The notes below the pieces were generated by a model. That model saw nothing but the letters and a program-made list of their open reading frames with translations. It made no database searches and was not told the origin of the DNA. A stretch of 64,000 nt of DNA. Source: Candidatus Latescibacterota bacterium. GTDB taxonomy: Bacteria > Latescibacterota > UBA2968 > UBA8231. The stretch's first letter is position 1; the number at the start of each line of letters is the position of its first letter. Positions 36,944 to 59,502 of the stretch are shown in pieces. The DNA lies in the NCBI GenBank assembly GCA_965243025.1, contig CBDETY010000003.1:3648001-3712000 (forward strand), written 5' to 3'. The position numbers and the translations under genes were made by a program.

Positions 36944-38572
36944 CTATATCTTGGCCAGTTCGTCGTAGAAAACGCGAACCGCGTGCTTCTGGCGAAGCGT
37001 CCGCACGTAGTCGCTGAAGGCGCGCTTGCGTTTGCGGATCTTCACTATGGCCGCGGCGCGCCGGGCCGATTCGGAGTACGGCCGCAATACCGGCGCCTCC
37101 CGGCCGAGGATCTTGCATACCGAGTAGCCGCTGTGCGTCTTGACCGGACCGAACACCGCCCCGTCCTCCAGCCCCTCGGCGGTCTCGTAGAGCTTCCTGT
37201 GCCGGCTGTTCTTCGAAACGGTAATGCGGCCGTCGTGGTGGGCCATCCCCTCGCGGATGGTGTATTCCCGGGCGAGCGCCCCGGCGTCCTCTCCGGCGTC
37301 GAGCTGTTCCCTGATCCACTCCCCTTCCTCGGGGATACCGACGAGGATTTCGATGACTTCGATCTTTTCCTCGGTGTGGAATACCTCGGGGTGGTTGTCG
37401 TAGTAGCCGCGCGCCTCCTGCTCGCTGACAGTCACCAGGCGGTCGACGTTGCGCAGCCGCAGCTCCTGCATCAGTTGATCCTGGCGGTAGAGCTCCAGGG
37501 CGTCCAGGATCTTCTGATCCCGATCGATTCCCGCGGCAGTCGCCTCGGCGATGAACAGCTCCTGGGGAACGACCCCTTCCTCGAGGAAATTCACGAATGA
37601 TTCCGGATCGCTGAACTGCTCCGAATCCCGCTTGGCTTCGGGAACGAACTGCAGGAACTCGTCGAGTGTGATGCTCCCGCCTTTGTAGGTGCAGATCGGA
37701 AGCCGGCGGATGGCCTCCAGGTCCGCATCGAGCGAACCGCGCTCGCGCAGCACGGCCTCCACCGCCTCCATGTTGATTCGGGGCTCGAACACCTTGCTCA
37801 GCGAATCGGCGAGCACCTCCGCCCTCTCGGCCCGTTTCCGTCCGTACACCCCCTCGGCGACGAGGTCGCGGACCTCGTACAAGGGAACGGGGATCTCGTC
37901 GAGGACCTTGATGATGGTATAGCGCCACTTCTTCTCGTAGAGGAACCGCAGCGGCTCCGTGATCTCGCCTGCCTGAAGCTGGAAGATCCTCCGCAAAAAC
38001 TTCGAGGTGTCGTCCAACCTCATGTACTGGGGGACGACCCCGCCCTGGTCGCGCGTCTCCTTGTAGAGAGATCTCTGGCGCGCCAGCTCCCCGAAGTCCG
38101 CCCCGTCCAGTACCTCCTGCCGCGCGGCGAGCGCCTCCTCCTCCGTTTCCAGGAGGATACCGGCGATTCGCACCGCTCGATCGCGGCCTTCCAGCTTCTG
38201 TTGGGCGAGCAGTTCCTCTTCGCTGACCTCGACCTGGCGGTTGATGGCCAGTCGCTTGTACTCGGTCAGCACCTTCTGTCTGTGGAACACTTCGAGTTTC
38301 GCGACGAACCCCGGTTCGGCGCTGATGCCGGATTCTTCGGCCTCTTTGAGAAGCAGCTTCTTGTCGATGAGGCTTTCCAGCATCAGGCTGTCGGGAGCAG
38401 GCTCGGGTTTCCCCGACCTGCGGACATCTTCTACCGCCTCTCTGAAAACCCTGAGATCGTTTGCGGTCACATGCTGTCCCGCGATTTCGGCGAGCACCAC
38501 GTCCGCGGCGGATGCCATGTCGGTCCGGCACAGAACGGCGGCGCACGCCGCAAGAATGAGTTTTACAGGCAT
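36944..38572 (-). CDS. SurA/PrsA-like exported chaperone with two parvulin-type (PpiC) domains
   Basis: Signal peptide; VLAEIAGQHVT, LIDKKLLLKEA, GADFGELARQRS..DQGG, GALAREYT, GPVKTHSGYSV.K. Confidence 0.8.
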   Translation of the reverse strand: MPVKLILAACAAVLCRTDMASAADVVLAEIAGQHVTANDLRVFREAVEDVRRSGKPEPAPDSLMLESLIDKKLLLKEAEESGISAEPGFVAKLEVFHRQKVLTEYKRLAINRQVEVSEEELLAQQKLEGRDRAVRIAGILLETEEEALAARQEVLDGADFGELARQRSLYKETRDQGGVVPQYMRLDDTSKFLRRIFQLQAGEITEPLRFLYEKKWRYTIIKVLDEIPVPLYEVRDLVAEGVYGRKRAERAEVLADSLSKVFEPRINMEAVEAVLRERGSLDADLEAIRRLPICTYKGGSITLDEFLQFVPEAKRDSEQFSDPESFVNFLEEGVVPQELFIAEATAAGIDRDQKILDALELYRQDQLMQELRLRNVDRLVTVSEQEARGYYDNHPEVFHTEEKIEVIEILVGIPEEGEWIREQLDAGEDAGALAREYTIREGMAHHDGRITVSKNSRHRKLYETAEGLEDGAVFGPVKTHSGYSVCKILGREAPVLRPYSESARRAAAIVKIRKRKRAFSDYVRTLRQKHAVRVFYDELAKI

Positions 38573-38600
38573 GGTCCTCGAGTCGTGCAGTTGGGTGTTT

Positions 38601-41225
38601 TCAATAGGTCAGGGCGACGGTGCGCAGGATTTCCCGGTCCTCGATCCCGGATCCATCGGTGTCGCTCCCGAGACGAAGGCGAACGGCGTACATACCTGGC
38701 GGAACGAGGTCTCCGGCTTCGTCCCGGCCATCCCACGGGATCGAGTAAGCGCCGGCGCTGACACTGCGCTGCTCTTCCAGGAGCCTGATCCTGCGGCCCC
38801 CGAGATCGAATATCTCCGCTTCGACCGCGGTGCTCGCACCGACCAGCATGAGCGTGAAATTCAGCGTCATCTCGTCGTTGACGCCATCGCCATTGGGGGA
38901 AAATACCGGCGGACTTACCGCGAGTTCGCCGAACAGCTCCTTGCGCTCCGGTTGGGCAACCACCTGCAGCGAGGTGCGGGTGACCTTCTCGTCGACGCGC
39001 TGCCACAGGCCGTCGCCCGAGCCGCGCAGCAGCGCCTGCAGGCGTCCTCCCGTGGAGTAGAGGGTACCCCGGAAATCGACCCGTACCGCCTCGGTTCCGG
39101 AAGGCACCTCTGGAAAGGAAAGGTGCAAGCTGTCGCCGCTGGCGAGAACCTCGACACCTTCCACCGCATGGCCGCCGGAATCACCACTTTCTTCGAAGGC
39201 GGAAGCGGGTCCGGCGGCCACCGACTCCCTTGCCGGATCGAAGGCCAGATCCATCCCGGCCGGCGGCAGCAGCAGCAGCTGGTTGAACGGATTGCCCTGA
39301 TCCTCGATATCGACCAACAGGAAAAACCCGCGCTCGACGCCCAGCGAATCCACACGGGAAGGGATCACCTGTCCGCGCAGGCTGTTGGCCACCGGATCGG
39401 AGAAGTTGACCCTGATGGATTTCAGCGTTGCCTGAGCGTTCGGATCCTCGGAAAGCAGCCTTGCCCGGATTGTCAGGAACTCGCGCGGCGAAGGGGAGGT
39501 GATCGCGCTTCCCGAGGCCGCTTCGTACGGTTCGCTCCACGGCTCCCAGTCGCTGCCGGCCACCTCCTCGGGAACGATATCCCCCTTCTGCGATTTGATG
39601 CGGATCTTGTTGTAGGCCGCTTCCGTGATTTCGGTTCCGTCCGCCTTGAAATAGTGCAGCAGGGTGTCGAGGGTGTTTCCCGTCCGCGTCTGGAGCTGGA
39701 CCCGCGTTCCCGGCGGCGTGTCGGCGTCCCACTCGATGGTGGTCAGGTTGCGGCTGCCCCCCAGCTGGATCAGGTCGGAAGTGAGCTCCACCTGCGGCTG
39801 GTATCCCTGCCCGATCAGCTGCATGTCGCCCACGTAGGCGACGACGTTGGCGGGGTATTCGTTCTTGCCGGCGCGCCGGTACTGGAGGCGGAAGAAGCGG
39901 GCCTTGACCGGCTCGAAACTGAAGTCGTAGAGATGAATCAGGCCGCTGGTGGCGGTGCGTTGCGGCAGGCCGTCGTTCTCCACCACGCGTTCCCATTTCA
40001 GCGATCCGTCGATTTCACGCGTGCCGTCCGAGAAATCGATCGCGAACCCCCCGAAGGTCCAGGCGTGCTCCCCGGCCCGGAAATTCAGGGACATCCGTTT
40101 TCCCTCTATCCAGAAGTAGGATCCGAGGTCGGCGACGAGGTCGACCAGAAACGAGGCGTCGTGCAGTCCCGAAGCGGCGAGGTTGAAGGCGAGATAGCTT
40201 TCGACCGTCCCGTCGAGGAGGATCTGCGGATTGAGATCCGCGGCGCCGAGAACGTGCGTGGTCGTATGCGAGAAGGAACCGCCACGGGTCAGGGTTTCCT
40301 TGAAAAGGTCGTCGCCGTCGCTCCATACCTCGAGCTCGGCGAGGCGCGGCCGCTCCCTGCGGAAGTACCGGACCGGGCCGCGGCGGCTTTCTTCGAGCTG
40401 GTCGTAGATCGACCTGGTAACGGCGAGCTCCCCGCCCGTTGACAGCAGCTTGGTGTATTCCACCACCCCGGTGTCCCCCGGCGCCTCCTGCCTCAGCAGC
40501 TCGAACTCTTCCCGCGATATCTCGCGTCCCTTCTCCAGGCCGGAGCCGTTTACCACAACCTGAACAAGACGCACGAGGCGCTTGCGGCGCTGCTCGAGGG
40601 GGAGGTTGGCCAGATCGATCTCGATCACCCGTTGGTTCACGTTCGCGTGCAGGGTCTGGTACACGCGCGTGAAGTCGATGGATGTGCCGGCTATCGCCTT
40701 GATCGGTTTCTGCCCGTCGGAGACCATCACGTCGAAGAGCTGGAACGGATCGCCCAGATCCTCATCGACGAAGCGGAGCACGATTTTGCTCGCGATCAGG
40801 GTTCGGCCCATGTCGACGGTGAACCACCACTGCAGACCGAGATTCCGGGCCGAGCCCGAAGTTGGCGCCGGCTCCCAGTAGGTCGTGAGATCGCCGTCGA
40901 ACAGGTTGACGACATCCTCCCGGTTGGTACCCGCGTCGACCGCGTCGAGCAGGACGATCTCTTCGGGGTCCTTCTTGAGGCTGGCCGGAGGGTTGAAGCG
41001 CAGGTTTTCGAGAATGTCATGCACGGCGTTGGTGTTGGTTCGCCAGTATCTCGGCCTGACCCCGTCTTCGTCGATCGCCAGGGTGCCGGTGGAAAATACC
41101 CAGTTGTCCCAGTGGGCCTGGCCGGCGACCACCACGGAACCGGGGCTCACGGTATGGCCGCTTTGCGATCCCGCGCTGCTGGCGAGCAACGCCATGGCCG
41201 AACAGACGACAGCGAGTCTCTTCAT
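38601..41225 (-). CDS. Secreted double-discoidin-like/FlgD(CHU_C)-tail protein, paralog C
   Basis: Signal peptide; same architecture as A and B; FSPNGDGVND; ends VALTY. Confidence 0.88.
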   Translation of the reverse strand: MKRLAVVCSAMALLASSAGSQSGHTVSPGSVVVAGQAHWDNWVFSTGTLAIDEDGVRPRYWRTNTNAVHDILENLRFNPPASLKKDPEEIVLLDAVDAGTNREDVVNLFDGDLTTYWEPAPTSGSARNLGLQWWFTVDMGRTLIASKIVLRFVDEDLGDPFQLFDVMVSDGQKPIKAIAGTSIDFTRVYQTLHANVNQRVIEIDLANLPLEQRRKRLVRLVQVVVNGSGLEKGREISREEFELLRQEAPGDTGVVEYTKLLSTGGELAVTRSIYDQLEESRRGPVRYFRRERPRLAELEVWSDGDDLFKETLTRGGSFSHTTTHVLGAADLNPQILLDGTVESYLAFNLAASGLHDASFLVDLVADLGSYFWIEGKRMSLNFRAGEHAWTFGGFAIDFSDGTREIDGSLKWERVVENDGLPQRTATSGLIHLYDFSFEPVKARFFRLQYRRAGKNEYPANVVAYVGDMQLIGQGYQPQVELTSDLIQLGGSRNLTTIEWDADTPPGTRVQLQTRTGNTLDTLLHYFKADGTEITEAAYNKIRIKSQKGDIVPEEVAGSDWEPWSEPYEAASGSAITSPSPREFLTIRARLLSEDPNAQATLKSIRVNFSDPVANSLRGQVIPSRVDSLGVERGFFLLVDIEDQGNPFNQLLLLPPAGMDLAFDPARESVAAGPASAFEESGDSGGHAVEGVEVLASGDSLHLSFPEVPSGTEAVRVDFRGTLYSTGGRLQALLRGSGDGLWQRVDEKVTRTSLQVVAQPERKELFGELAVSPPVFSPNGDGVNDEMTLNFTLMLVGASTAVEAEIFDLGGRRIRLLEEQRSVSAGAYSIPWDGRDEAGDLVPPGMYAVRLRLGSDTDGSGIEDREILRTVALTY

Positions 41226-41329
41226 CGTGAATTCCTCTCTACTGTGCCAGCTTCATCAGTCGATCCCGGACAGCATTGCGAGATCTTCAATTTGTCCGGG
41301 ACGAATCCATTTTCCCGATCGATAAACTC

Positions 41330-41343
41330 AGTGCCCCGTCGCA
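41330..41343. mobile_element. Isolated MITE terminus
   Basis: AGTGCCCCGTCGCA is identical to 14942-14955, the left end of the MITE. Confidence 0.45.
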
Positions 41344-41355
41344 TATGTAAACCGG

Positions 41356-41396
41356 CGGCGGCGCACGCCGTTCAGAATGGGTATTTCAGGCATGGT
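41356..41396 (-). pseudogene. Decayed remnant of the PPIase 5' end
   Basis: CGGCGGCGCACGCCG..GAATG.GT.TT.CAGGCATGGT aligns with 38536-38575 (start codon and first codons of the PPIase), with an indel. Confidence 0.65.
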
Positions 41397-41398
41397 TT

Positions 41399-44020
41399 TC
41401 AATAGGTCAGGGCGACGGTGCGCAGGACCTCCCGGTCCTCGACTCCCGATCCATCGGTGTCGCTCCCGAGACGAAGGCGAACGGCGTACATACCTGGCGG
41501 AACGAGGTCTCCGGCTTCGTCGCGGCCATCCCACGGGATCGAGTAAGCGCCGGCGCTGACACTGCGCTGCTCTTCCAGGAGCCTGATCCTGCGGCCCCCG
41601 AGATCGAATATCTCCGCTTCGACCGCGGTGCTCGCACCCACCAGCATGAGCGTGAAATCCAGCGTCATCTCGTCGTTGACGCCATCGCCATTGGGAGAAA
41701 ATACCGGCGGACTTACCGCGAGTTCGCCGAACAGCTCCTTGCGCTCCGGTTGGGCAACCACCTGCAGCGAGGTGCGGGTGACCTTCTCGTCGACGCGCTG
41801 CCACAGGCCGTCGCCCGAGCCGCGCAGCAGCGCCTGCAGGCGTCCGCCGGTGGAGTAGAGGGTACCCCGGAAATCGACCCGTACCGCCTCGGTTCCGGAA
41901 GGCACCTCTGGAAATGAAAGGTGCAGACTGTCGCCGCTGGCAACCACCACGACCCCGTCCAGCTCCTGACCCGCTTCGCCACCCCCTTCCAAAAGGGAGG
42001 AGGAGCCGGCGAATACCGATTCGCGCAACGGATCGAAGCTCAGTTGCATCCCCGCCGGGGGCACCAGCAGCAACTCGTTGAACGGATTGTCCTGATCCTC
42101 GATGTCGACCAACAGGAAAAACCCGCGCTCGACGCCCAACGAATCCACACGGGAAGGGATCACCTGTCCGCGCAGGCTGTTGGCCACCGGGTCGGAGAAG
42201 TTGACCTCAATGGATTTCAGGGTGGCGTGAACTCCGGGATCCCCGGACAGCAAGGTCGCCCGAATCTTGAGGAACTCGCGCGGCGAAGGGGAGGTGATCG
42301 CGCTTCCCGAGGCCGCTTCGTACGGTTCGCTCCACGGCTCCCAGTCGCTGCCGGCCACCTCCTCGGGAACGATATCCCCCTTCTGCGATTTGATGCGGAT
42401 CTTGTTGTAGGCCGCTTCCGTGATTTCGGTTCCGTCCGCCTTGAAATAGTGCAGCAGGGTGTCGAGGGTGTTTCCCGTCCGCGTCTGGAGCTGGACCCGC
42501 GTTCCCGGCGGCGTGTCGGCGTCCCACTCGATGGTGGTCAGGTTGCGGCTGCCCCCCAGCTGGATCAGGTCGGAAGTGAGCTCCACCTGCGGCTGGTATC
42601 CCTGCCCGATCAGCTGCATGTCGCCCACGTAGGCGGAAACGTTGGCGGGGTATTCGTTCTTGCCGGCGCGCCGGTACTGGAGGCGGAAGAAGCGGGCCTT
42701 GACCGGCTCGAAATCGAAGTCGTAGAGGTGAACCAGGCCGCTGGTGGCGGTGCGTTGCGGGAGGCCGCCGCTTTCCACCACGCGTTTCCATTTCAGCGAT
42801 CCGTCGATTTCACGCGTGCCGTCCGAAAAATCGACTGCGAACCCCCCGAAGGTCCAGGCGTGCCCTCCGCCCCGGAAATTCAGGGACATCCGTTTTCCCT
42901 CTATCCAGAAGTAGGATCCGAGGTCGGCGACGAGGTCGACCAGAAACGAGGCGTCGTGCAGTCCCGAAGCGGCGAGGTTGAAGGCGAGATAGCTTTCGAT
43001 CGTCCCGTCGAGGAGGATCTGCGGATTGAGGTCCGCGGCGCCGAGAACGTGCGTGGTCGTATGCGAGAAGGAACCGCCACGGGTCAGGGTTTCCTTGAAA
43101 AGGTCGTCGCCGTCGCTCCATACCTCGAGCTCGGCGAGGCGCGGCCGCTCCCTGCGGAAGTACCGGACCGGGCCGCGGCGGCTTTCTTCGAGCTGGTCGT
43201 AGGTTCCCCTGGTAACGGCGAGCTCCCCGCCCGTTGACAGCAGCTTGGTGTATTCCACCACCCCGGTATCCCCAGGCGCCTCCTGCCTCAGCAGCTCGAA
43301 CTCTTCCCGCGATATCTCGCGTCCCTTCTCCAGGCCGGAGCCGTTTACCACAACCTGAACCAGACGTACCAAGCGCTTGCGGCGCTGCTCGAGGGGGAGG
43401 TTGGCCAGATCGATCTCGATCACCCGTTGGTTCACGTTCGGGTGCAGGGTCTGGTACACGCGCGTGAAGTCGATGGATTCACTGGCTATCGCCTTGATCG
43501 GCTTCTGCCCGTCGGAGACCATCACGTCGAAGAGCTGGAACGGATCGCCCAGATCCTCATCGACGAAGCGGAGCACGATTTTGCTCGCGATCAGGGTTCG
43601 GCCCATGTCGACGGTGAACCACCACTGCAGACCGAGATCCCGGGCCGAGCCCGAAGGCGGGGCCGGCTCCCAGTAGGTCGTGAGATCGCCGTCGAACAGG
43701 TTGACGACATCCTCCCGGTCGGTACCCGCTTCGACCGCGTCGAGCAGGACGATCTCTTCGGGGTCCTTCTTGAGGCTGGCCGGAGGGTTGAAGCGCAGGT
43801 TTTCGAGAATGTCATGCACGGCGTTGGTGTTGGTTCGCCAGTATCTCGGCCTGACCCCGTCTTCGTCGATCGCCAGGGTGCCGGTGGAAAACATCCAGCT
43901 CTCCCAGTGGGCCTGGCCGGCGACAACCACGGAACCGGGGCTCACGGTATGGCCGCTTTGCGATCCCGCGCTGCCGGCGAGCAGCGACATGGACAAACAG
44001 ACGACGGGGAGTCTCCTCAT
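41399..44020 (-). CDS. Secreted double-discoidin-like/FlgD(CHU_C)-tail protein, paralog D (near-identical tandem copy of C)
   Basis: Start MRRLPVV at 44020 (or 44041); long stretches identical to C at nucleotide level; ends VALTY. Confidence 0.88.
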   Translation of the reverse strand: MRRLPVVCLSMSLLAGSAGSQSGHTVSPGSVVVAGQAHWESWMFSTGTLAIDEDGVRPRYWRTNTNAVHDILENLRFNPPASLKKDPEEIVLLDAVEAGTDREDVVNLFDGDLTTYWEPAPPSGSARDLGLQWWFTVDMGRTLIASKIVLRFVDEDLGDPFQLFDVMVSDGQKPIKAIASESIDFTRVYQTLHPNVNQRVIEIDLANLPLEQRRKRLVRLVQVVVNGSGLEKGREISREEFELLRQEAPGDTGVVEYTKLLSTGGELAVTRGTYDQLEESRRGPVRYFRRERPRLAELEVWSDGDDLFKETLTRGGSFSHTTTHVLGAADLNPQILLDGTIESYLAFNLAASGLHDASFLVDLVADLGSYFWIEGKRMSLNFRGGGHAWTFGGFAVDFSDGTREIDGSLKWKRVVESGGLPQRTATSGLVHLYDFDFEPVKARFFRLQYRRAGKNEYPANVSAYVGDMQLIGQGYQPQVELTSDLIQLGGSRNLTTIEWDADTPPGTRVQLQTRTGNTLDTLLHYFKADGTEITEAAYNKIRIKSQKGDIVPEEVAGSDWEPWSEPYEAASGSAITSPSPREFLKIRATLLSGDPGVHATLKSIEVNFSDPVANSLRGQVIPSRVDSLGVERGFFLLVDIEDQDNPFNELLLVPPAGMQLSFDPLRESVFAGSSSLLEGGGEAGQELDGVVVVASGDSLHLSFPEVPSGTEAVRVDFRGTLYSTGGRLQALLRGSGDGLWQRVDEKVTRTSLQVVAQPERKELFGELAVSPPVFSPNGDGVNDEMTLDFTLMLVGASTAVEAEIFDLGGRRIRLLEEQRSVSAGAYSIPWDGRDEAGDLVPPGMYAVRLRLGSDTDGSGVEDREVLRTVALTY

Positions 44021-44120
44021 CGCGAATCCCTCATTCTGCATTTCGCCTTGTGTCCATAAAGCCGGTTGGAGCCGTCACTGCGATCTCGCATACCCCAGGA
44101 GGGCAAGTCCAGTTCCCGGT

Positions 44121-46049
44121 TCAATAAACCAGGGCAAGGGCGGCAACCTCGGCATCGGGCTCATCATCCGCCTCGACTTCCAGCCGCAACAGGTACAAGC
44201 CGGGGGACAGCAGCCTGGCCTGTTCGTCCCGGCCGTCCCAGGTCGCCGAAAAACGGCCGCTGGTCCCGGCATCCACCGCAATATCCGCCACCCGCGCCCC
44301 CGCCAGATCGAACACCGCCAGCGAAACCGGAGCTCCCCCCACCAGGTTAACCAGATCGTATTCAACCGTCAGGAGGTCGTTGATCCCGTCGGCATTGGGG
44401 GTGAACGCCGACACTTCGAACGACCGGATGGTGCGAGTTCCTTCCATGACCGGGTTCACGCTGAGCGCGTTTCCCTCCACCAGAGGGTCGGCGTCTCCGG
44501 GGGTAACGCGCTGGCGGACTTCCGCCGGACGCTCGCTGTCGTAAATCCTGCCCGCGAACACCGTGCCCACCTGAAACACTTCGCTCCGAAACACCACCTC
44601 CATGAGCTCGCCCGAGGTCTCCAGGTCCACCCGGGGAATGTGCACGGAAAAGCTCTCGCCGTCCCACGGGGTCACGGAAAACTCCCCGGGGGACAGGACC
44701 GCCTGCCCGATGCGCACTTCGTCGACGTTTGCCGGAGACGCGGTGTATATCTGAACGCTGTCGAAACCGAGGTCGTCTCCCTGTATCCTCGGAAGCAGCT
44801 TGTAAGTGAACGACGTGGCCTCTCCGGGCCTGACCTCGTTGGGGTAAACCTCCGCCGCCACTTCGCTCGCCGAGGGCGGAGCCGACACCTCGAATTGCAG
44901 ATAGTCCAGGGCGGCCCCGGAAGATCCCTTTGAAGAGATGAAGTCCGCCTTTGTCTGCAGGAACCGACGGGGCTTGCCGTCCACATCCCCGCTCCGGCCT
45001 GCCCCGAAGTCGAAGGGTCCCCTCCAGAACCCCCAGTTCTCCCTGTCAGGCTTGATGCCCGCTTTCTCCCCTCCCTCCAAGCGGCTGTAGCTGCCCCGGT
45101 CCAGCAGGTTGCCGTCCCGGTCGAAGCGGGTCCGCTCATCGCCGCGGAAGGTGCGGCGCCAGTAGCTGTTGGGATCCTCGTCATCCCCGGTTCGCATGCT
45201 GAGCTCGATGGCAGCGCCCGGATCCTCGCTGCCGGACCAGGTGAGGTCGCCGAGAACGGAACGCCCACCCAGATCGAGGACATTCGAAAGGTAACCGGCT
45301 CTGGAAACAAAGCCGTCGCCGTAGATCTCGAACTCCGCTATCTCCCAGTCTCCTCTGGGAGACTCGAACAGCATCTCGGCGATCGGAACGTCGGGAAGCT
45401 CGATGTCGACGATCGGATCCCTGTTCCCGATCACGTTGTAGACCGGGTCGAAGTCGATAACCTCGAATCTTCCGGTGTGCTTGTAGGCCCGGGTTCCGCG
45501 TTTCCGGATGTCGCCGTCGTTGGTGCCAATGAAAAAATCCCTGACGAACCGTCTTTTCAGGAACTCCGGCCTCGGCTGGAATACGACCCGGCGGATGGGA
45601 TACAGATCGGCGAAATCGATCCAGATCGCCCACAAGAAACCGTCCTCTGAAAACCGCGAGGACCAGTTGTAAAAACCAAGAAAGGCGGTTCTCAAGTTCC
45701 CGTCCACGAGCCCCCCGACCCAGCGATCATCTTCCCAACCCTCAAGCGGATCGTAGAACCGCACATGGCCGCCGCGCTCGAGGATCCCGGGGGCAATGTT
45801 GACTTCGGGATCGAGACGGACCGGCGTCAGCGATTCGTTGATTTCGATATGGCGATGATTCCCGGAAAGTTCCTCGTCGACGTCAGCCCAGGAAAGCTGA
45901 ACGAAATCGATTCCCTCCTGGCTGGCCTTGTCCGGGACCGGAAGTTTCTCACCGCCGAGGCGGTAGACCGTGAGTGTGTCTACAGGGCCGGCTCCAAAAG
46001 CGCAGGCCACCAGGGCTCCAAGCGTACAGCGGAGGGAGTGAGGTTTCAT
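44121..46049 (-). CDS. Secreted single-discoidin-like/FlgD(CHU_C)-tail protein, paralog E
   Basis: Start MKPHSL at 46049; LTVYRLGG, IWIDF, WEIAEFEIYGDG, MRTGDD, FTPNADGIND, WDGRD; ends LALVY. Confidence 0.87.
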   Translation of the reverse strand: MKPHSLRCTLGALVACAFGAGPVDTLTVYRLGGEKLPVPDKASQEGIDFVQLSWADVDEELSGNHRHIEINESLTPVRLDPEVNIAPGILERGGHVRFYDPLEGWEDDRWVGGLVDGNLRTAFLGFYNWSSRFSEDGFLWAIWIDFADLYPIRRVVFQPRPEFLKRRFVRDFFIGTNDGDIRKRGTRAYKHTGRFEVIDFDPVYNVIGNRDPIVDIELPDVPIAEMLFESPRGDWEIAEFEIYGDGFVSRAGYLSNVLDLGGRSVLGDLTWSGSEDPGAAIELSMRTGDDEDPNSYWRRTFRGDERTRFDRDGNLLDRGSYSRLEGGEKAGIKPDRENWGFWRGPFDFGAGRSGDVDGKPRRFLQTKADFISSKGSSGAALDYLQFEVSAPPSASEVAAEVYPNEVRPGEATSFTYKLLPRIQGDDLGFDSVQIYTASPANVDEVRIGQAVLSPGEFSVTPWDGESFSVHIPRVDLETSGELMEVVFRSEVFQVGTVFAGRIYDSERPAEVRQRVTPGDADPLVEGNALSVNPVMEGTRTIRSFEVSAFTPNADGINDLLTVEYDLVNLVGGAPVSLAVFDLAGARVADIAVDAGTSGRFSATWDGRDEQARLLSPGLYLLRLEVEADDEPDAEVAALALVY

Positions 46050-46228
46050 GCGGCCTTCAAGTGCCTGCAGGGTGACGGGTCGACCTGGCGTCAACGCGCG
46101 ACCGGCAGGGGAATCGTCGCCGTTCACTTTCGGAAGAAACCTGAAGCAGGGAGGAGCAACTCCACAAAAGGCTCGCTCCCCCTTTCCTTCAGAAGTATTC
46201 CCAAGGGCCCGGTTCGCTGCCCGGCGCT

Positions 46229-48211
46229 TCAGTAGGCGATGGGAATTACGGCAACTTCGATATCGGTCTCTTCGTCCGCCTCGACCTCCAGCTTCAGCAG
46301 GTACAAGCCGGGAGAAAGCAGGCCGGCCTGGTCGTCGCGGCCATCCCAGGTCGCCGAAAAACGACCGCTGATCCCCGCATCCACCGCAATATCCGCAACC
46401 CGCACGCCCGCCAGATTGAACACCTCGAGCGCCACGGGAACACCCCCTGCCAGGTTCACCAGGTCGTATTCCACCTTCAGCAGGTCGTTTATCCCGTCGG
46501 CGTTCGGGGTGAAAGCGGACACCTCGAGCGCCTGGATGGTCCGTGTACCCACCATTCCCGGCGATACGCTGAGCGTATTCCCTTCCACCAGCGGATCCGC
46601 ATCACCCGCCGTAACCCGCTGGCGCACCTCCATCGGGCGGGTTGTGTCGAAAACACGGCCCGTAAACACGGTACCCACCTTGAACACCTCACCTTTGAAC
46701 ACCACTTCGATGAGCTCACCCGAGGACTGCAGGTCGACCCGGGGAATGTGCACGGAAAAGCTCTCGCCATCCCATGGCGTGACCGAGAACTCCCCCGGAG
46801 ACAGAACCGCGGACCCGATTCGCACCTCGTCGACGCTTGCCGGGGCCACCGGCGTCTGGATTTGAATGCTGTCGAAACCGAGGTCGTTCTCCTGCATCTC
46901 CGGGAGCAGCTTGTAGGTGAAGGAGGTCACCTGCCCCAGTTCCGATACCGTCGGCTCGATTTCGGCGAGTACCTGGCTGGCAACCGGCGGCGTCGACACC
47001 TCGAATTCAACAAAATCCAGCTTGCTTCCCGCCGAGCCGATTGTCGAGGAAAAATCCGCTTTGATCTGCACGAATTGCCTGGGCCTGTCGCTGACCAGGT
47101 CGCCGCGTCCGGCATCGAAATTCAGCAGGGTCGTCCAGAAACCCCAGTTCTCCCTGTCCGGGGTTATCGGCAACCTCTCGCCTCCTTCGAGCCGCTGGTA
47201 GGATGACCGGGTGAGTTCGTTCCCGCTGGCATCGAAGCGGGATTTCTCATCGCCGCGAAATGTCAGCCGCCAGTAGAAGTTCGGGTCTTCGTCGTCTCCT
47301 GTGCGCACGCTCAGGTCCACGGCCGCCCCTTCGTCAACCGAACCCGACCAGGTCAGGGTGCCGAGGCTCGAGCGCGCCCCGAGGTCGATGATGTTGGAAA
47401 TGTAGGCCGCCTGTGACACGAAACCGTCCCCGTAGATCTCGAGTTCAGCGAGTTCCCAGTTCCCCTCTCCGGCGGCCAGTACGAGCTCGGAAACAGGCTC
47501 GTCCGGCAGCTCGAGGTCGAGAACGGCTGTGGTGTTTTCCCTGATGTCGATCTTTACGTCGAAGTCGACGAAACGGTTCCCGCGCCAGGTCAGCCTGCCA
47601 TCCCGGGTGCCGTGCAAAGGGTCGAGAGCGAGGGTGGCAGGAGTTCTGTTGACCGGTGCGTTATTTGTACCGACCTGCAGGTTGGGCATGAAGCGGTCGA
47701 CATGGTGGTCGGGGGTAGGCTGCAGGACGAGCCGGCGGATCGGGAAGAAGCCCCGGAACTGAATCCACACGGTCTTGCAGCGCCGCGTCGCCGTGAAGGT
47801 ACCGCAATGGAGCCCGAAATCGGATCTCAGGCCGGTGTAGGCGGTTTCGTAATCGCCGTCAAAAGCCAGGTCGAGCAGTGGTTCGTCCTGCCAGCCGTAC
47901 CCATTGGAGGACTTGATTTCCGCACCGCGCGACCTGAGCAGCGGAGTGAGGTTTTCGGTCGGGTCGAGGCGTTGGGGTTGCAGAGGCCCGTCGGTCTCGA
48001 CGAGGAAAGCAGATCCGAACTTCTCCTCGTCCGCGTCGGCCCAGTTCAACTGAATGAACTCCACGCCGGGCTCGGAGGAGATTTCGGGAGGCGGGATCTC
48101 GGTCCCACCGATCCGGTAAATGGTCAGGGCATTGCCGTTCCTCGATCCCCCCGGGTTGAGAATCAGCAGGGCCGCAAGGGCCAGCGCATGACGGGCCGGA
48201 AAGGCGGTCAT
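46229..48211 (-). CDS. Secreted single-discoidin-like/FlgD(CHU_C)-tail protein, paralog F
   Basis: LTIYRIGG, FDGDYETA, WELAELEIYGDG, VRTGDD, FTPNADGIND; ends IPIAY. Confidence 0.87.
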   Translation of the reverse strand: MTAFPARHALALAALLILNPGGSRNGNALTIYRIGGTEIPPPEISSEPGVEFIQLNWADADEEKFGSAFLVETDGPLQPQRLDPTENLTPLLRSRGAEIKSSNGYGWQDEPLLDLAFDGDYETAYTGLRSDFGLHCGTFTATRRCKTVWIQFRGFFPIRRLVLQPTPDHHVDRFMPNLQVGTNNAPVNRTPATLALDPLHGTRDGRLTWRGNRFVDFDVKIDIRENTTAVLDLELPDEPVSELVLAAGEGNWELAELEIYGDGFVSQAAYISNIIDLGARSSLGTLTWSGSVDEGAAVDLSVRTGDDEDPNFYWRLTFRGDEKSRFDASGNELTRSSYQRLEGGERLPITPDRENWGFWTTLLNFDAGRGDLVSDRPRQFVQIKADFSSTIGSAGSKLDFVEFEVSTPPVASQVLAEIEPTVSELGQVTSFTYKLLPEMQENDLGFDSIQIQTPVAPASVDEVRIGSAVLSPGEFSVTPWDGESFSVHIPRVDLQSSGELIEVVFKGEVFKVGTVFTGRVFDTTRPMEVRQRVTAGDADPLVEGNTLSVSPGMVGTRTIQALEVSAFTPNADGINDLLKVEYDLVNLAGGVPVALEVFNLAGVRVADIAVDAGISGRFSATWDGRDDQAGLLSPGLYLLKLEVEADEETDIEVAVIPIAY

Positions 48212-48238
48212 GTCATCCCCTCTCGATTGTTTGGAGAC

Positions 48239-50167
48239 TCAGTAAACGAGGGGCACCGACGCCACCGCGATATCGGTCTCCTCGTCCGCTTCAACTTTCA
48301 GTCTGATGAGGTATATACCCGGGGGCTGCAGCTGGTTTCCCTCTCTGCCGTCCCAGGTTGCGGTGAAACGGCCGCTTTCACCGGTGCCGGTTTCGTCTAT
48401 CTCGATGGCCGCGACGCGTTCGCCGGCAAGATTGTACACGCCAAGTTCGACAGGAACTGCCCCGGAGAGATTGACGAGATCGTACTCGATCTCGAGAACA
48501 TCGTTGACGCTGTCGCCATTCGGCGAGAATGGAGACACGATCAGGGCCTGAATCGCGCGGCCGCCGACCGTGGTCGGGGAAACGCTGAGCGAATTCCCTT
48601 CCACGAGCGGGTCAGCGTCCCCTTCAGTGACGCGTTGGCGAACTTCCAACGGCTTCTCGCTGTCGAACACTCTGCCGGAAAACACGGTGCCCACCTTGAA
48701 CACCTCGCTCCGGAACACTACCTCGATAAGCTCTCCCGACGACTGCAGGTCGACGCGGGGAATATGGACCGAGAAACTTTCGCCGTCGTATGGACTGACG
48801 TCGAACTCCCCCGGGGACAGAACCGCCGACCCGATGCGTACTTCGTCGACGCTGGCAGGGGCAAGGGGCGCCGAGATCTGGATACTGTCGAAACCGAGGT
48901 CGTCTCCCTGTATCCGGGGAAGCAGTTTGTAGGTAAAGGCCGTAGTCTCCCCGAGTTGGGCCTCCGGGGGGAAGATCTCGGCCATCACCTCACTCGCTAC
49001 CGGAGGCGTCGACACCTCGAATTGCAGAACGTCCAGAGAACTGCCGGCTGACCCTCTGGTCGAGAAAAAATCCGCCTTGACCTGCACGAACCGGCGAGGC
49101 TTCCCACCTACGAGGCCACTTCTGCCAAGAGCGAATTCCAGCGGCGCTGTCCAGAATTCCCAATTCTCGCTGTCCGGTGCGATGCCTCCCTTCTCACCAC
49201 CTTCCAACCGGTTGTAGCTGCGGCGATCCAGGGGTTTGCCCTCATGGTCGAAGCTGCTGCGCTCCTCACCCCGGAAGGTGAGGCGCCAGTACGAGTTGGG
49301 ATCCTCGTCATCCCCGGTGCGCATGCTGAGCTCGATACCGGCCCCGGGATCTTCGCTTCCCGACCAGGTGAGGTCGCCGAGGCTCGAGCGCCCGCCGAGG
49401 TCGACGATGTTCGAAACGTAATTCGCCCGGGCAGCATATCCGTCTCCATAGATCTCGAGCTCCGCAATTTCCCAATCTCCGGACGGGGACTCCACCAGCA
49501 TTTCGGCAATCGGAATATCAGGCAGTTCAAGATCGAGGATCGGGGTCCGATTCTCGGTAACGTTGTATACGACATCGAAGTCGAAGAACTTTCCGCCTCT
49601 CCAGGAGTGCCTGTACTCCCGGGTTCCCCGCTTGCGAATGTCGCCGTCGTTGGTCCCGATGACGTAGTCCTTGACGAAGCGCTCGTTCAGGAACTTTGGC
49701 GAAGGCTGAAAAACGACCCGGCGAATGGGAAACAGGCCGGCGAAATCGATCCAGATTCCCTTGTAGTACTGGCTTCCTGTCTGATCGCCTCTCACACCCT
49801 GAAAGGCGGTGTCGTAATCCCCGTCGAACAGGAAATCGAGGTCCGGCTGATCCTGCCAGCCGTAAGAATTGTTCAACTGGATCCGACCCCCGCGCTCCCG
49901 GATCAACGGCGTCAGATTGACGCTGGGATCGAGGCGGACAGGAGTCAGCGACCCGCTCGTCTCGAGCTGGTGAGAGCTTCCGAACAGATCGTCGTCGACA
50001 TCCGCCCAGAACAGCTGGACGAAATCGACTCCCTCCTCGTTTGCGGCTTCGGGAACGGACAGATCCTCCCCGCCAAGCCGGTAGATGGTGAGTGAATCCC
50101 CGGGCTCCGCCAGGATCAGGGCAAGACCTGGAAGGAATCTCCTAAGAATGGCAATCGTTGTCTTCAT
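48239..50167 (-). CDS. Secreted single-discoidin-like/FlgD(CHU_C)-tail protein, paralog G
   Basis: Start MKTTIA at 50167; LTIYRLGG, FDGDYDTA, WEIAELEIYGDG, FSPNGDSVND; ends VPLVY. Confidence 0.87.
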   Translation of the reverse strand: MKTTIAILRRFLPGLALILAEPGDSLTIYRLGGEDLSVPEAANEEGVDFVQLFWADVDDDLFGSSHQLETSGSLTPVRLDPSVNLTPLIRERGGRIQLNNSYGWQDQPDLDFLFDGDYDTAFQGVRGDQTGSQYYKGIWIDFAGLFPIRRVVFQPSPKFLNERFVKDYVIGTNDGDIRKRGTREYRHSWRGGKFFDFDVVYNVTENRTPILDLELPDIPIAEMLVESPSGDWEIAELEIYGDGYAARANYVSNIVDLGGRSSLGDLTWSGSEDPGAGIELSMRTGDDEDPNSYWRLTFRGEERSSFDHEGKPLDRRSYNRLEGGEKGGIAPDSENWEFWTAPLEFALGRSGLVGGKPRRFVQVKADFFSTRGSAGSSLDVLQFEVSTPPVASEVMAEIFPPEAQLGETTAFTYKLLPRIQGDDLGFDSIQISAPLAPASVDEVRIGSAVLSPGEFDVSPYDGESFSVHIPRVDLQSSGELIEVVFRSEVFKVGTVFSGRVFDSEKPLEVRQRVTEGDADPLVEGNSLSVSPTTVGGRAIQALIVSPFSPNGDSVNDVLEIEYDLVNLSGAVPVELGVYNLAGERVAAIEIDETGTGESGRFTATWDGREGNQLQPPGIYLIRLKVEADEETDIAVASVPLVY

Positions 50168-50250
50168 CGAAATCCCCCGCTTTTCTCCAGCTGCCGGGCC
50201 GGAATCGAATTCCATCCAACGGGTTTCACGAAGAATGGCTGACTTCGGGA

Positions 50251-50287
50251 AATAAAAAAAGGGATGGACCCGTTTCGAGCCCATCCC
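50251..50287 (-). terminator. Intrinsic (Rho-independent) terminator
   Basis: Minus strand reads GGGATGGGCTCG-AAA-CGGGTCCATCCC followed by TTTTTTTATT, 21 nt after the stop of 50309-51211. Confidence 0.85.
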
Positions 50288-50308
50288 CGTACTTCAGAGA
50301 AACAAACC

Positions 50309-51211
50309 TTACCTGGAAACGGAGGCCTTGATCCGTCCCCAGCTGTCTTCTTCTACCGCTGTATCTGTGAAGTCTACAGTCTCATCGATCGGCAGAAGGA
50401 GGAAGTCAGCGAGGAAATCGGCGTCGCCGAAACTTTCCACGTTGGGTCCGATCGTCCAGCGGCCCCAACAGTTGCAGTCGTCGGTGAACTCGGCATCGCC
50501 GTCGTGAACCTGAACGCTCACGCCTATGATCTGGTCGGCCTCGAAGTCGTGAAGGATGCTCTCTTCAGCGGAGGTCCAGTTGTAGTCATCCCAGTAAAGC
50601 TGCCACCACTCGGCGTAGGTGCGCGCTTCCTGGTTGGAACCTGGAGTCCCGTCGACCCGGTGCGCCTGTTGCGACCACTCGGGGTCGCGGTACCAATCGC
50701 CCTGAGTCATCCAGAACCAGGTCCAGTTCTCGGAGAAACCTTCGTCGAATGCCCAGTGGTGGGTTTGGGCGTGACGGCCTTTCTGCCGCTGGGCTTCTTC
50801 GTCCGTCATGCCTTCGATGCTCCAGAAAGTCCCACCGCTGTGGTCGGCATCGATCACACCTTCGATGGTTTCGCCGCCGATGTGGATGTCGTCGAATTTT
50901 TCGAAGACATAGTAGATGCGGTCAGTTTCATCGTTGTAGGCTAGGGCCCAACGGAACGACAGGGAGGACGGATCGAGATCGCCCACGTAGTTCCAGGGAC
51001 GCTCGTCGCTCTGGACGACATCGACTTCGGTGATGAAGAACTCGGGCGGGAGGATATCCCACTCACCGAGATCGCCGTCGAGAACCGGCAGGGCGTTTTC
51101 GGGCCAGGCCCAGACAGCGCCCAGAAAATCCGGCGGATCGTGTGCCGTTGCAGTGCCGCTCAACGAGAAAACGAGAGCGCCGGCAAGCAGCAATGAGGAA
51201 AGCTTCTTCAC
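50309..51211 (-). CDS. Secreted acidic Trp-rich protein, CBM9/DOMON-like, with C-terminal TAVEEDSWGRIKA motif
   Basis: GAAGGAG RBS and GTG start; clean signal peptide ending ATA-H; VLDGDLGEW, LAYNDETDRIY, VSVQVHDGD. Confidence 0.85.
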   Translation of the reverse strand: MKKLSSLLLAGALVFSLSGTATAHDPPDFLGAVWAWPENALPVLDGDLGEWDILPPEFFITEVDVVQSDERPWNYVGDLDPSSLSFRWALAYNDETDRIYYVFEKFDDIHIGGETIEGVIDADHSGGTFWSIEGMTDEEAQRQKGRHAQTHHWAFDEGFSENWTWFWMTQGDWYRDPEWSQQAHRVDGTPGSNQEARTYAEWWQLYWDDYNWTSAEESILHDFEADQIIGVSVQVHDGDAEFTDDCNCWGRWTIGPNVESFGDADFLADFLLLPIDETVDFTDTAVEEDSWGRIKASVSR

Positions 51212-54435: not shown

Positions 54436-54437
54436 TT

Positions 54438-57215: not shown

Positions 57216-57261
57216 GGCTGACTCCTCCCTTGGTTACAGCTGAAACTCTGGTAGTCCCGGC

Positions 57262-59502
57262 TCAGAAAGCCAGGCTGACTATACCTGGTATCTTTTCCAC
57301 CCCGGTTCCGGCGTCGAGGGTGACGACGAAGATGTAGTTTCCAGGAGGCATCAGATCTCCCGCTTCGTTGCGACCGTCCCAATGCTGGGTGAAACGGCCG
57401 CTGGACTTGAGCCCGCTGTAGATTCTGATGCGCCTCCCCGACAGGTCGTAGATTGCGAAATCGAGCTGGGTGGGTCTGGCGATGTTGGTGATATCACAGG
57501 CTATCGACACGGATTCGTTGATGCCGTCCCCGTTTGGTGAAAACGCCGCCGGGGTCGCCGTGACGTTGACCAGCAGCTTGTCGATGACCGGTACATCGAC
57601 GAACAGGTTGCGCAACACCGGTGTTCCGATCGGGTCGGTGTCGGGGTCGGTTTGCCCTGAACGGCTCAGGTCCGCTGCATTTCCCGGCTCGAGTGGCTGA
57701 CCGAAGACCGGATCCTGCTCGTTCAGGGCCTCCCCGCTGAAGCGGGTTCCGACCCGCAGGACGGTGCTGTGAAAATCGACCCGCAACAGGGTGCCGGTTT
57801 CATCGATGTGCGGGAATTCCAGTGTGAAGCCGCTGGTGTCGTTTTCCACGACGGTGAAATCGCCTGCGGCCGCGGGAGTATCGGTTACCGACATGCCGGT
57901 GAAATCGCTCTCGTGGCGAACCGCACCGTCAGCTGAAAAGATCTGCACCGAGCCGATGTTCCGGGTCTGCAGCGGAGTGGTGATGCGCAGGCTGCCGAAC
58001 CCGAGATCCAGACCCTTGCTCGTGTAGAGGACGGCGTAGGTGAAAGCGGTTTCCTCTCCGAGAATCGCCGAACGGGGAAAGATCTCCGCAAGAAGTGAAT
58101 CGGCAAACACCGGACGCGAAACGTCGAAACCCAGCCCCCCGATGCCGGTTGCCGAATCGAAGGTTTCGTTGGCGAAGCCGATCCTGAACTGGAAGTAGCG
58201 CCTTGTACCGCTGGTGACGATGGGAACGCCCGCGGTCGCCTCCTCGAGAGCTGCCTCGTCCACGACCCCGTTCATAGTGTAAGGGGGGGACCAGGCGCTC
58301 CAGTTGGTCAGGTCGTCCCTGATCGCGGACCTGGCGTCCTGGTCCAGGCCGAAATAGGAGGCGTTGTCGAGGGTGATCGATTGCCGCTCCTCGAGGGAAA
58401 GGTTGTTGAAGGTCAGCAGCGATTCGCGGCCGTCCCCGTCGGGATTGTCGAGCACGGTCTCGATCAAGGCTGCCAGGTCGGCGTCCTCGACCTCGGATGC
58501 AGGCTTCCAGGGGGCGTCGATCGGGATATCCTCCACGGTCGCCCCGCGGCGCACGACCCTGCCGGAGGGCTGCACGCCGATGCGGGTGTACTCGACCGGA
58601 TCGGGATCGTTGCCCGAACGAGTCTGGATGAATACCTGGGAACGATCCGGGTCTCCGAGCTGTTCCTGGGTCCAACGGATGTTTCCGAGAATGGCGCGCT
58701 CACCGAAGTCGAAAACGTTCGAGACGTAGGTGGCCTGGGGTACGAAGCCATCGCTGAAAACCTGCATCTCCGCGATCTCGAAGCCAACGGAGGACAGGGA
58801 TTTCAGCCGGATGTGGCGGACGAACTGGGTCGGTATTCTCAGGTCGACGACAGCCTCCTCGTTCTGTCCTTCGAGGGCGATCGTTTCCCAGATCAGGGCC
58901 CCGTCTCGCACCGATTCCGGGGCGCCGTCGTTGACGAACAGTTCGTAACCCTTGATGAACTCGCGCTGGTTGGGAAATGCCGGGGCCGGGTAATCCTCGG
59001 CGGCGTTGCGCGGAAAGAAACGGAAGCGGTTGACGCCGAATACCGACCCGAGATCGAACTGCATGATCAACCCGAACGCGCCGGCGCTCGATCCGGCCGA
59101 CAGCGCCTTAACCTCGAGAGCGGTGTTGCCGTCGCCGTCGTACATGTTGGGAAAGTTGCCCTCGAGCGTGCGAAAAGAAGGCAGCGGCGTGAAAACCTGC
59201 CCGCCTCGATCGACAACTCCCAGGAGAATGTTGTCGGAGGTGTCGGCCTGCTGCGGAAAGATCCAGCCAGGTCTGTCGAGCAGGTCAAAGTCGATAACCC
59301 CACCCGGGGTGTTGGTTTCATCGACGTTCCTGTCGTCGAGAATCACGGTGGCAGGAATATCCCCTCCACCGCTTTCCCAAGGCAGGCCGGTAACCCCGAC
59401 GACCATGGATTCGGTCGTGGCATCTGAAACTCCGGCCGAGAGGAGGGCAAACGCACAGATTGCTGCAAAAACCGGGGCTCGGGCAGCGTCGAGTTTGGTC
59501 AT
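57262..59502 (-). CDS. Secreted discoidin-like/FlgD(CHU_C)-tail protein, paralog H
   Basis: Signal peptide; YDGDGNT, FDLGSVFGVNRFRFFPR, FEIAEMQVFSDG, IQTRSG, WSAWSPPY, RRYFQFR, FSPNGDGINE, WDGRNEAG.LMPPGNY; ends VSLAF. Confidence 0.87.
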   Translation of the reverse strand: MTKLDAARAPVFAAICAFALLSAGVSDATTESMVVGVTGLPWESGGGDIPATVILDDRNVDETNTPGGVIDFDLLDRPGWIFPQQADTSDNILLGVVDRGGQVFTPLPSFRTLEGNFPNMYDGDGNTALEVKALSAGSSAGAFGLIMQFDLGSVFGVNRFRFFPRNAAEDYPAPAFPNQREFIKGYELFVNDGAPESVRDGALIWETIALEGQNEEAVVDLRIPTQFVRHIRLKSLSSVGFEIAEMQVFSDGFVPQATYVSNVFDFGERAILGNIRWTQEQLGDPDRSQVFIQTRSGNDPDPVEYTRIGVQPSGRVVRRGATVEDIPIDAPWKPASEVEDADLAALIETVLDNPDGDGRESLLTFNNLSLEERQSITLDNASYFGLDQDARSAIRDDLTNWSAWSPPYTMNGVVDEAALEEATAGVPIVTSGTRRYFQFRIGFANETFDSATGIGGLGFDVSRPVFADSLLAEIFPRSAILGEETAFTYAVLYTSKGLDLGFGSLRITTPLQTRNIGSVQIFSADGAVRHESDFTGMSVTDTPAAAGDFTVVENDTSGFTLEFPHIDETGTLLRVDFHSTVLRVGTRFSGEALNEQDPVFGQPLEPGNAADLSRSGQTDPDTDPIGTPVLRNLFVDVPVIDKLLVNVTATPAAFSPNGDGINESVSIACDITNIARPTQLDFAIYDLSGRRIRIYSGLKSSGRFTQHWDGRNEAGDLMPPGNYIFVVTLDAGTGVEKIPGIVSLAF

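Follow-up and report, generated by a model that had tools for sequence, protein, structure and literature searches.

A conserved gene cluster of Latescibacterota-type genomes combines predicted outer-membrane barrels of an unannotated family with lectin-like proteins bearing type-B-like tails

What is a bacterium building when one gene array places two large, barrel-like proteins of no named family beside several secreted proteins that look lectin-like? This question is raised by a ten-gene cluster at positions 36944 to 59502 of the window, which is the whole 64,000-nucleotide stretch analyzed here from a Candidatus Latescibacterota bacterium (assembly GCA_965243025.1, contig CBDETY010000003.1, positions 3,648,001 to 3,712,000 of the forward strand). 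The original prediction, made from the sequence alone, proposed a candidate undescribed export or assembly system of the cell surface or, as an alternative, a glycan capture complex without SusC and SusD. We find that the ten-gene cluster is real, is conserved, and extends beyond its first description. The reading that we favor, to which we give a probability of roughly 45%, is a modular surface complex of Latescibacterota-type genomes that would resemble a polysaccharide utilization locus (PUL) while being built from other parts.

Ten consecutive open reading frames (ORFs) occupy the minus strand between 36944 and 59502, with intergenic gaps of 2 to 263 bases, and each of them is the frame with high third-position GC. 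Their common orientation and their order are as originally predicted, and so are the signal peptides claimed for all ten products: hydrophobic leaders were readable at every N terminus, by reading of the sequence without a predictor. In proteins E and G, the leader comes after an internal methionine, so these proteins likely start near 46049 (E) and 50167 (G), and the listed ORFs are probably too long. We call tail proteins those that end in a domain resembling CHU_C or FlgD_ig. The array opens with one of these, H (57262-59502; 746 amino acids [aa]), in which a leader, a CBM32-like region, and a beta-rich middle precede the C-terminal CHU_C/FlgD_ig-like domain. Next come the barrel proteins L1 (54438-57215; 925 aa) and L2 (51475-54435; 986 aa) and a 300-aa protein (50309-51211) with the C terminus ...SWGRIKASVSR. 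Tail proteins G (48239-50284; 681 aa as listed), F (46229-48211; 660 aa), and E (44121-46127; 668 aa as listed) form an EFG type, and D (41399-44041; 880 aa) and C (38601-41225; 874 aa) form a CD type. The array closes with a 542-aa peptidyl-prolyl isomerase (PPIase; 36944-38572) that has a leader and two parvulin domains. All 37 window ORFs covered were scanned against Pfam and NCBIfam. By Pfam, none of the ten proteins has a catalytic domain, and the 37 ORFs gave no match to a PorK/L/M/N, SprA, usher, or TonB-dependent receptor family, none of which the original prediction had recognized either.

The cluster is not peculiar to this genome. Related loci came from a scan of one genome per species, which gave at least 388 matching stretches, at least 346 of which were confirmed. 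Our locus counts refer to the 80 best of these at least 346 confirmed stretches, each taken with flanks of up to 10 kb, and the four families (barrel, tail, 300-aa protein, and PPIase) were mapped in them by hidden Markov models built from the window proteins. The families do cluster across genomes, a point on which the original prediction depended, as a tail gene lies at most 400 bp from a barrel gene in 72 of the 80 loci. Tail genes were present in 75 loci, the 300-aa family in 52, the PPIase in 46, and two or more barrels in 54. Of the 42 loci with a length of 20 kb or more, all had tail genes, 36 had the 300-aa family, 32 had the PPIase, and 30 had all four families together. The 80 loci were drawn from 41 assemblies, each of which contributed 5 at most, and the window itself holds two clusters.

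Gene order is likewise retained. For 67 of 110 full-length barrel genes, a co-oriented tail gene ends less than 400 bp upstream, and most of the other barrel genes encode second barrels of a pair. An H-type gene stands directly upstream of the barrel gene in most related loci. The commonest orders were H-barrel-barrel-(TPR)-300aa-EFG-EFG and H-barrel-300aa-EFG-PPIase-CD; another common order was CD-barrel-H-barrel-300aa, or the same arrangement ending in LRR-X. The TPR gene stood between the second barrel gene and the 300-aa gene in 11 loci. A tree of 128 full-length barrels resolved into four clades, which hold 45 first barrels of pairs, 42 second barrels, 32 barrels that occur singly, and 9 that follow a CD-type gene, and the same locus groupings were mirrored between the first-barrel and second-barrel clades. 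L1 falls in the first-barrel clade, where its nearest neighbors are first barrels of pairs, and L2 falls in the second-barrel clade. These separate, mirrored clades imply that the barrel pair is old and has been kept as a pair. On the grounds of conserved synteny and co-diverging barrel clades, we rejected the idea that these are unrelated neighboring genes. The record titles of the related loci mostly name Candidatus Latescibacterota, with many Gemmatimonadota and a few other phyla. Near-identical cluster architectures appear under titles as different as Latescibacterota, Gemmatimonadota, Planctomycetota, Myxococcales, and Handelsmanbacteria (L002, L012, L048, L061, and others), and the phylum labels of these assemblies are probably inconsistent.

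What, then, are the large proteins? Identity between L1 and L2 is 37%, and neither has a Pfam or NCBIfam match. When 20 diverse members of the family were searched against Pfam at E≤10, the matches were scattered and inconsistent, with no common family, and none of the 20 matched Plug, TonB_dep_Rec, or PorP_SprF even at that threshold. Two barrel profiles (A1 and A8) found nothing among PDB sequences at E≤10, and searching the ESM Atlas led to unnamed clusters of the same barrel family, with no route to a known one. The family itself is large. A word-indexed search found 697 relatives at E≤0.001; among the 120 of these that were listed, none had a Pfam domain and the few named ones were called hypothetical. 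A full profile search at E≤0.001 counted 1102 clusters (50% identity), 393 of which also passed E≤1e-30.

Modeled with AlphaFold2 from 67 sequences, L1 gave a predicted local distance difference test (pLDDT) score of 71 and a predicted template modeling score (pTM) of 0.67, and 22-23 long antiparallel beta-strands were counted from the secondary-structure string of the model; we put the barrels at about 22-24 strands. The Foldseek comparison that had been proposed as a check on this protein returned outer-membrane barrels throughout when run against the PDB (LptD, SlpA, MtrB, Occ porins, FimD, and some TonB-dependent receptors), with E values down to 9e-7 and template modeling (TM) scores on the query of at most 0.24. 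This result supports a large outer-membrane barrel and nothing more specific, and it bears out the outer-membrane character first ascribed to the large proteins. We consider L1 and L2 to be predicted outer-membrane beta-barrels of a family new to annotation. A beta-rich insert (residues 239-424) that follows the first five or six strands was modeled confidently, and an acidic insert (residues 502-626) with EF-hand-like loops was modeled poorly. The acidic segment at about residues 523-626 is the most conserved part of the barrel superfamily and has EF-hand-like or thrombospondin-type-3-like loops, such as D-L-N-N-N-G-W-I-D-R-F-E; this segment is likely to bind calcium. SlpA chains of Deinococcus (PF21620) were among the top five fold matches, but the cluster barrels have no SLH or coiled-coil part. 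Kinship with SlpA is unproven, as 4 of 25 distant family members matched SlpA_C at 16.5-19.8 bits, all below the cut-off of 35, and we keep it as a lead only.

The tail proteins connect these barrels with known secretion biology. The original prediction had compared their C termini with CHU_C and FlgD_ig, and Pfam matches to these families lie at the C terminus of all six tail proteins in the cluster, with scores that straddle the curated cut-off of 27 bits common to both. FlgD_ig reaches this cut-off in C, D, E, F, and H (28-32.4 bits; F 28, E 28.6, H 30.3, and D 31.6) and falls short of it in G (18.2 bits). The motif F(S/T)PNGDGxND...WDGR...PPG.Y is visible by alignment in all nine tails of the window, and in leader-bearing proteins, the CHU_C/FlgD_ig matches all stop 10-25 residues short of the C terminus. 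Among members sampled from related loci, 67 of 68 matched CHU_C at E≤0.01, including all 24 of the H type, all 19 of the CD type, and 24 of the 25 of the EFG type. When compared with the PDB, the tail-family profiles matched FlgD immunoglobulin (Ig)-like domains, down to E 6.6e-9, and weakly the C-terminal domain of PorU.

Ahead of the tail, the tail proteins have related bodies, as seen between E and H (27% identity over 548 residues) and between C and G (25% over 286 residues), and they sort into four types, H, EFG, CD, and X. Over their N-terminal parts, G is 65% identical to E and 60% identical to F. F5_F8_type_C matched all 19 CD-type members sampled, and among the window proteins D (34.1 bits) and C have such a domain; C has two CBM32-like regions before its tail. 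The EFG and CD profiles matched CBM32 modules of clostridial glycosidases in the PDB, the CD profile at two places, and in the Atlas the H body found no family but its own. With CBM32/discoidin matches from both Pfam and the family profiles, the tail proteins look like noncatalytic lectin-like proteins with a tail resembling type IX secretion system (T9SS) type B, which agrees with their original description as lectin-like. On DNA comparison, D is a recent tandem copy of C, with 96% mean column identity, flanks included. The differences between the two cluster at alignment columns ~1930-2260 and upstream of the start codons, a pattern that suggests local diversification or gene conversion.

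The 300-aa protein had no Pfam match, and its fold offers a better guide. Its AlphaFold2 model reached a pLDDT of 85, and Foldseek matched it to CBM9 structures (1i82, 7nwo, and 7nwn), with E values from 1.5e-8 to 2.9e-8 and TM scores on the target of 0.63-0.73, those for 1i82 being E 2.9e-8 and TM 0.73. Heme-binding DOMON-like subunits were weaker matches, and in a precomputed list PF06452 was present in 1 of 46 homologs. Judged by the model, the protein has a CBM9/DOMON-like beta-sandwich fold, like that of the CBM9 of Thermotoga maritima Xyn10A and of EbdC and NxrC. Unlike CBM9, it is a stand-alone secreted protein with features of its own. Cleavage of its leader is predicted after ATA, and the next residue (24) is histidine (AxA|H) throughout an alignment of 43 homologs with identities down to 24%. 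A DADHSGG motif (residues 121-127) is nearly invariant across the 43 homologs, and a TAVE..SWGxIK peptide, TAVE..SWGRIKA in the window, is conserved at the C terminus. Among 3660 ORFs of the related loci, the SWGxIK peptide occurred in 49 of 58 ORFs of the 300-aa family and in no other ORF. The mature N-terminal histidine together with a second histidine is reminiscent of copper "histidine brace" sites; the fold, however, is CBM9/DOMON-like. The sole long protein found to contain the 300-aa family, P0171 (974 aa), has FlgD_ig, dockerin, and cohesin in its precomputed Pfam list. Its length fits a fusion with a neighboring EFG-type tail protein, a single case that is too little to argue from.

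The last member of the array was originally called a SurA-like chaperone, and this held in part. The parvulin domains are present, with Rotamase at 61.3 bits in two stretches and Rotamase_3 at residues 146-209. At E≤0.01, Pfam reported the Rotamase families alone, without the SurA N-terminal domain, and all eight NCBIfam PPIase matches were far below their cut-offs. "SurA-like" may thus describe how this PPIase works, and it does not establish family membership.

How these parts might act together is best approached through systems that they resemble. In Bacteroidota, according to PMC9143113, proteins with a C-terminal domain (CTD) of type B are secreted by the T9SS and then held by cognate, coexpressed PorP/SprF-like barrels, which are 14-stranded and of the FadL type. 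The same source describes 10 PorP-like proteins in F. johnsoniae and a PPIase recovered in Flavobacterium pull-downs along with SprB and SprA, and type B domains are sometimes labeled FlgD_ig, according to a review (PMC11611037). Our cluster resembles pairs such as SprB-SprF and PG1035-PorP in that its tail proteins join a Sec leader to a C-terminal Ig-like domain matching CHU_C/TIGR04131, in part below cut-off, its tail and barrel genes are adjacent and co-oriented, many such pairs occur per genome, and a PPIase is associated. It differs in its barrels, which at 925 and 986 aa, with ~22-24 strands and no PorP_SprF match, are unlike the PorP/SprF proteins of roughly 300-400 aa, as the original prediction had held. 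It differs also in that the barrels often form a co-diverging pair, in the additional fixed CBM9-like SWGxIK protein and dedicated PPIase, and in that neither the window nor the 10-kb flanks of related loci showed T9SS core genes.

A second resemblance is to the SusC/SusD PULs of Bacteroidota. As in those systems, an outer-membrane barrel stands beside noncatalytic, carbohydrate-binding-like proteins, there are many paralogous loci per genome, and sugar-related genes and regulators lie near some loci. Unlike those systems, the cluster lacks a TonB-dependent receptor or Plug match, a SusD-like protein, lipoproteins, and core carbohydrate-active enzymes, and its presumed surface proteins end in tails of the CTD type. 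Of 114 representatives of the flank ORFs, about a dozen are similar to enzymes of sugar catabolism, parts of sugar ABC transporters, sulfatases, or regulators that respond to sugars, mostly at scores below cut-offs. Considering these scattered genes, the many copies per genome, and the noncatalytic carbohydrate-binding-like parts, the case for a non-SusCD glycan capture complex is no weaker than that for an export system.

We favor a surface module because a type-B-like tail recurs beside a cognate barrel many times per genome, as it does in Bacteroidota, though with a different and larger barrel family. In this model, one or two large outer-membrane barrels of the unannotated family would form the membrane core. 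Three to six noncatalytic proteins with CBM32/discoidin-like domains and a tail of the T9SS type-B/FlgD_ig kind would be made with Sec leaders, taken to the cell surface, and held there by their C-terminal domain on the cognate barrel. The H-type protein, encoded directly upstream, would be the fixed partner of the barrel, the CBM9-like protein would be attached by the conserved SWGxIK peptide at its C terminus, and the dedicated periplasmic parvulin PPIase would chaperone the barrel or its cargo. Since the parts resemble noncatalytic sugar-binding proteins and the loci are multiplied in the manner of PULs, the likely task of such a complex would be surface capture of glycans or glycoconjugates, which may also pass or be imported through the barrel.

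Several observations weigh against this model. We infer surface location, the binding of tails to barrels, the role of the PPIase, and the class of ligand by analogy with the systems above. CHU_C reaches its cut-off in H (34.2 bits) and G (27.2 bits) but stays below it in C, D, E, and F (21.7-25.8 bits; E 24.9 and F 25.8), TIGR04131 matched H at 24.9 bits against a cut-off of 35, and the other tail proteins had no TIGR04131 match. With several tails under the curated cut-offs, these may be ordinary Ig-like domains. Two further CD-type tail genes on the minus strand outside the described cluster (26529-29201 and 29399-32269), whose products are 51-54% identical to C and D, have no adjoining barrel, so a neighboring barrel is not needed by every tail protein; the product of the former has a CHU_C match above cut-off (28.1 bits). 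The N-terminal region of L1 (residues 15-134, about 110 residues and rich in aromatic residues) is conserved in the family yet was modeled at a pLDDT below 50. No lipoprotein signal was evident in the leaders of any cluster part, and by Pfam the core cluster holds no glycoside hydrolase, lyase, or peptidase, unlike most PULs. Apart from the sugar-related dozen, the flank ORFs are heterogeneous and include housekeeping, restriction-modification, and transposase genes. A complex prediction that combined residues 22-925 of L1 with the tail domain of H (residues 652-746) scored 0.00 in both runs; made without controls, it is evidence neither way.

The same observations can be read in other ways. 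The tail proteins may be ordinary T9SS cargo with an unusual anchor, in which case a full T9SS elsewhere in the genome would export them via SprA/Sov, the large barrels would replace PorP/SprF as collectors or anchors, and the cluster would be a lineage-specific accessory. The matches of the tails to CHU_C, TIGR04131, and the PorU C-terminal domain fit this explanation, as do the PPIase pulled down in Flavobacterium and the many cognate barrel-cargo pairs indicated by the 10 PorP-like proteins of F. johnsoniae (PMC9143113), and the phylum belongs to the Fibrobacteres-Chlorobi-Bacteroidetes (FCB) group, in which T9SS may exist in other phyla, according to a review (PMC11285876). Yet no T9SS family was found in the 37 window ORFs, none reached cut-off among the 114 flank-ORF representatives, and barrels of ~930 aa with ~22-24 strands and no PorP_SprF match are not of the 14-stranded FadL type. 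Keyword searches, which did not cover subscription journals, found no paper joining Latescibacter with T9SS. We regard this explanation as unlikely, though well worth keeping in view. It parts from a self-contained pathway on a single fact, which is whether these genomes encode a T9SS.

Such a pathway would be chaperone-usher-like, with the PPIase holding the tail proteins and the large barrel serving as both translocon and display platform. Like FimD/PapC with FimC/PapD, the cluster combines a large barrel, a chaperone-type gene, found in 32 of the 42 loci that span 20 kb or more, and several paralogous "subunits", some with lectin domains and all with one common C-terminal Ig-like domain. 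The barrel is big enough for a translocon, FimD was among its fold matches (TM 0.21-0.24, probability 1.00), and no T9SS genes were seen nearby. The beta-rich domain inserted after the first five or six strands sits at a place comparable to that of the usher plug. Against these points, usher similarity was no better than that to LptD, SlpA, or MtrB, with TM scores of at most 0.24, no usher or PapD-like family was matched, a parvulin PPIase stands in place of a PapD-like Ig chaperone, the tail proteins are large multidomain proteins of 650-880 aa that do not look like incomplete folds of the donor-strand type, and no energy source is evident. We find this pathway quite improbable. A self-sufficient, T9SS-free route of export and display, in which the parvulin would deliver CTD-tagged lectin-like proteins to the ~930-aa barrels, often an obligate heteropair, that would then both translocate and retain them, strikes us as rather unlikely.

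Alternatively, the barrel may be solely an uptake channel analogous to SusC, with the N-terminal ~110 residues as its plug and with binding proteins that reach the surface independently and feed it. About 22 long strands and a conserved N-terminal region resemble the layout of a TonB-dependent receptor, with a strand count compatible with 22, but the region at the plug position is the one modeled at low confidence. TonB-dependent receptors were among the weaker fold matches of L1 (E 4e-4 to 1.5e-3), and the nearest named Atlas cluster was the TonB-receptor-like DUF6029 (score 0.89), a lead only. The PUL-like multiplicity of loci and the DUF6785 polytopic membrane proteins and sugar-related genes in the flanks also suit an uptake role. 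However, none of the 20 barrel-family members matched Plug or TonB_dep_Rec, no SusD-like or lipoprotein partner was found, and ExbD/TolR appeared once among the 114 flank-ORF representatives, below cut-off. Furthermore, the strict tail-then-barrel gene order and the co-diverging clades suggest physical partnership over independent delivery. We hold an uptake channel alone to be a poor prospect.

Other parts of the window bear on the extent of the cluster. The original prediction saw the same pairing of families at 1-5955. The association of barrel and tail does recur there, but the barrel pair was not seen, as one barrel is visible at the window edge. This third barrel (1-2190, plus strand) is cut by the edge to a 3' part of 729 aa and is 43% identical to L1 over 781 columns. 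It is followed on the plus strand by an LRR protein (2258-4057; LRR_4 127.5 bits), whose listed ORF start is doubtful, and by an X-type tail protein (4057-5955; CHU_C 41.8 bits and FlgD_ig 40.5 bits). The order barrel-LRR-tail recurs in related locus L075, and positions 1-5955 correspond to the end of a cluster of the CD-barrel-H-barrel type with the LRR-X ending.

Within the ten-gene array, a consensus scan found a terminator-like hairpin with a 13-bp stem and a T-run (50260-50288, minus strand) directly 3' of the 300-aa gene. This hairpin may divide the array into two transcription units, one from H through L1 and L2 to the 300-aa gene and the other from G to the PPIase gene; as consensus matches only, such sites were no more numerous across the region than in shuffled sequence. 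The window is ~65% G+C overall, and the G+C fraction of the cluster regions 1-6000 and 36000-60000 is 0.58-0.64, against 0.65-0.70 in the remaining window.

Three kinds of gene recur as neighbors of the clusters and are all present in the window, namely, TPR genes (32 of 80 loci), CRTAC1-like FG-GAP/ASPIC genes (20 of 80), and DUF6785/DUF6784 genes (15 of 80). A divergent TPR protein (59660-61561, plus strand) and a CRTAC1-like FG-GAP/ASPIC protein (61495-63357, plus strand) lie beyond H, and their membership in the module is uncertain. Pairs of this kind are found on both flanks of the cluster, at 59660-63357 (plus strand) and 34907-36844 (minus strand). Three DUF6785/DUF6784 genes lie at 15203-17203 (plus strand), 17376-19337 (minus strand), and 63571-63999 (plus strand); by hydropathy, their products are membrane proteins of the polytopic kind, with 10 or more hydrophobic segments, and our keyword searches found no paper on DUF6785, DUF6784, or DUF5916. 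The window also encodes two multiheme c-type cytochromes (13255-14943, plus strand, and 24649-26517, minus strand), one of them fused to TPR repeats, and a protein matching the class A beta-lactamase family (22236-23129, plus strand; Beta-lactamase2 181 bits). A fused multipass membrane/spermidine-synthase-like protein is encoded near the cluster (32253-34874, plus strand), and a relative in the closest related locus (L001, 2579-5266) shares 29% identity over 790 residues. In the flanks of the related loci, a GldK match in one ORF was rejected at 89.5 bits against a cut-off of 350, PvdO scoring higher on the same ORF.

As far as keyword searches reach, the cluster is undescribed. They found no published description of the module, be it for Latescibacter with type IX secretion, with secretion systems and the outer membrane (including PMC4454575), or with PUL/SusC (including PMC12993501), or for FlgD Ig-like domains with the T9SS. 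Taken with the clustering of the families across genomes and the lack of a match to any known soluble or TonB-dependent family, this leaves the original prediction of a candidate undescribed system standing. An unannotated barrel family, with its 1102 clusters at 50% identity, is central to a six-family module, of which genomes of this widespread uncultured phylum hold several copies each. If the tails dock on the barrels, the Bacteroidota rule of a type B CTD plus a cognate barrel would extend to a different barrel architecture and perhaps beyond T9SS. If self-sufficient export and display were true, the CTD-to-barrel principle would predate the Bacteroidota T9SS and reach further than it does. 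A module that captured glycans would represent a non-SusCD solution to polymer foraging and would change how carbohydrate use is predicted from metagenomes of the FCB group.

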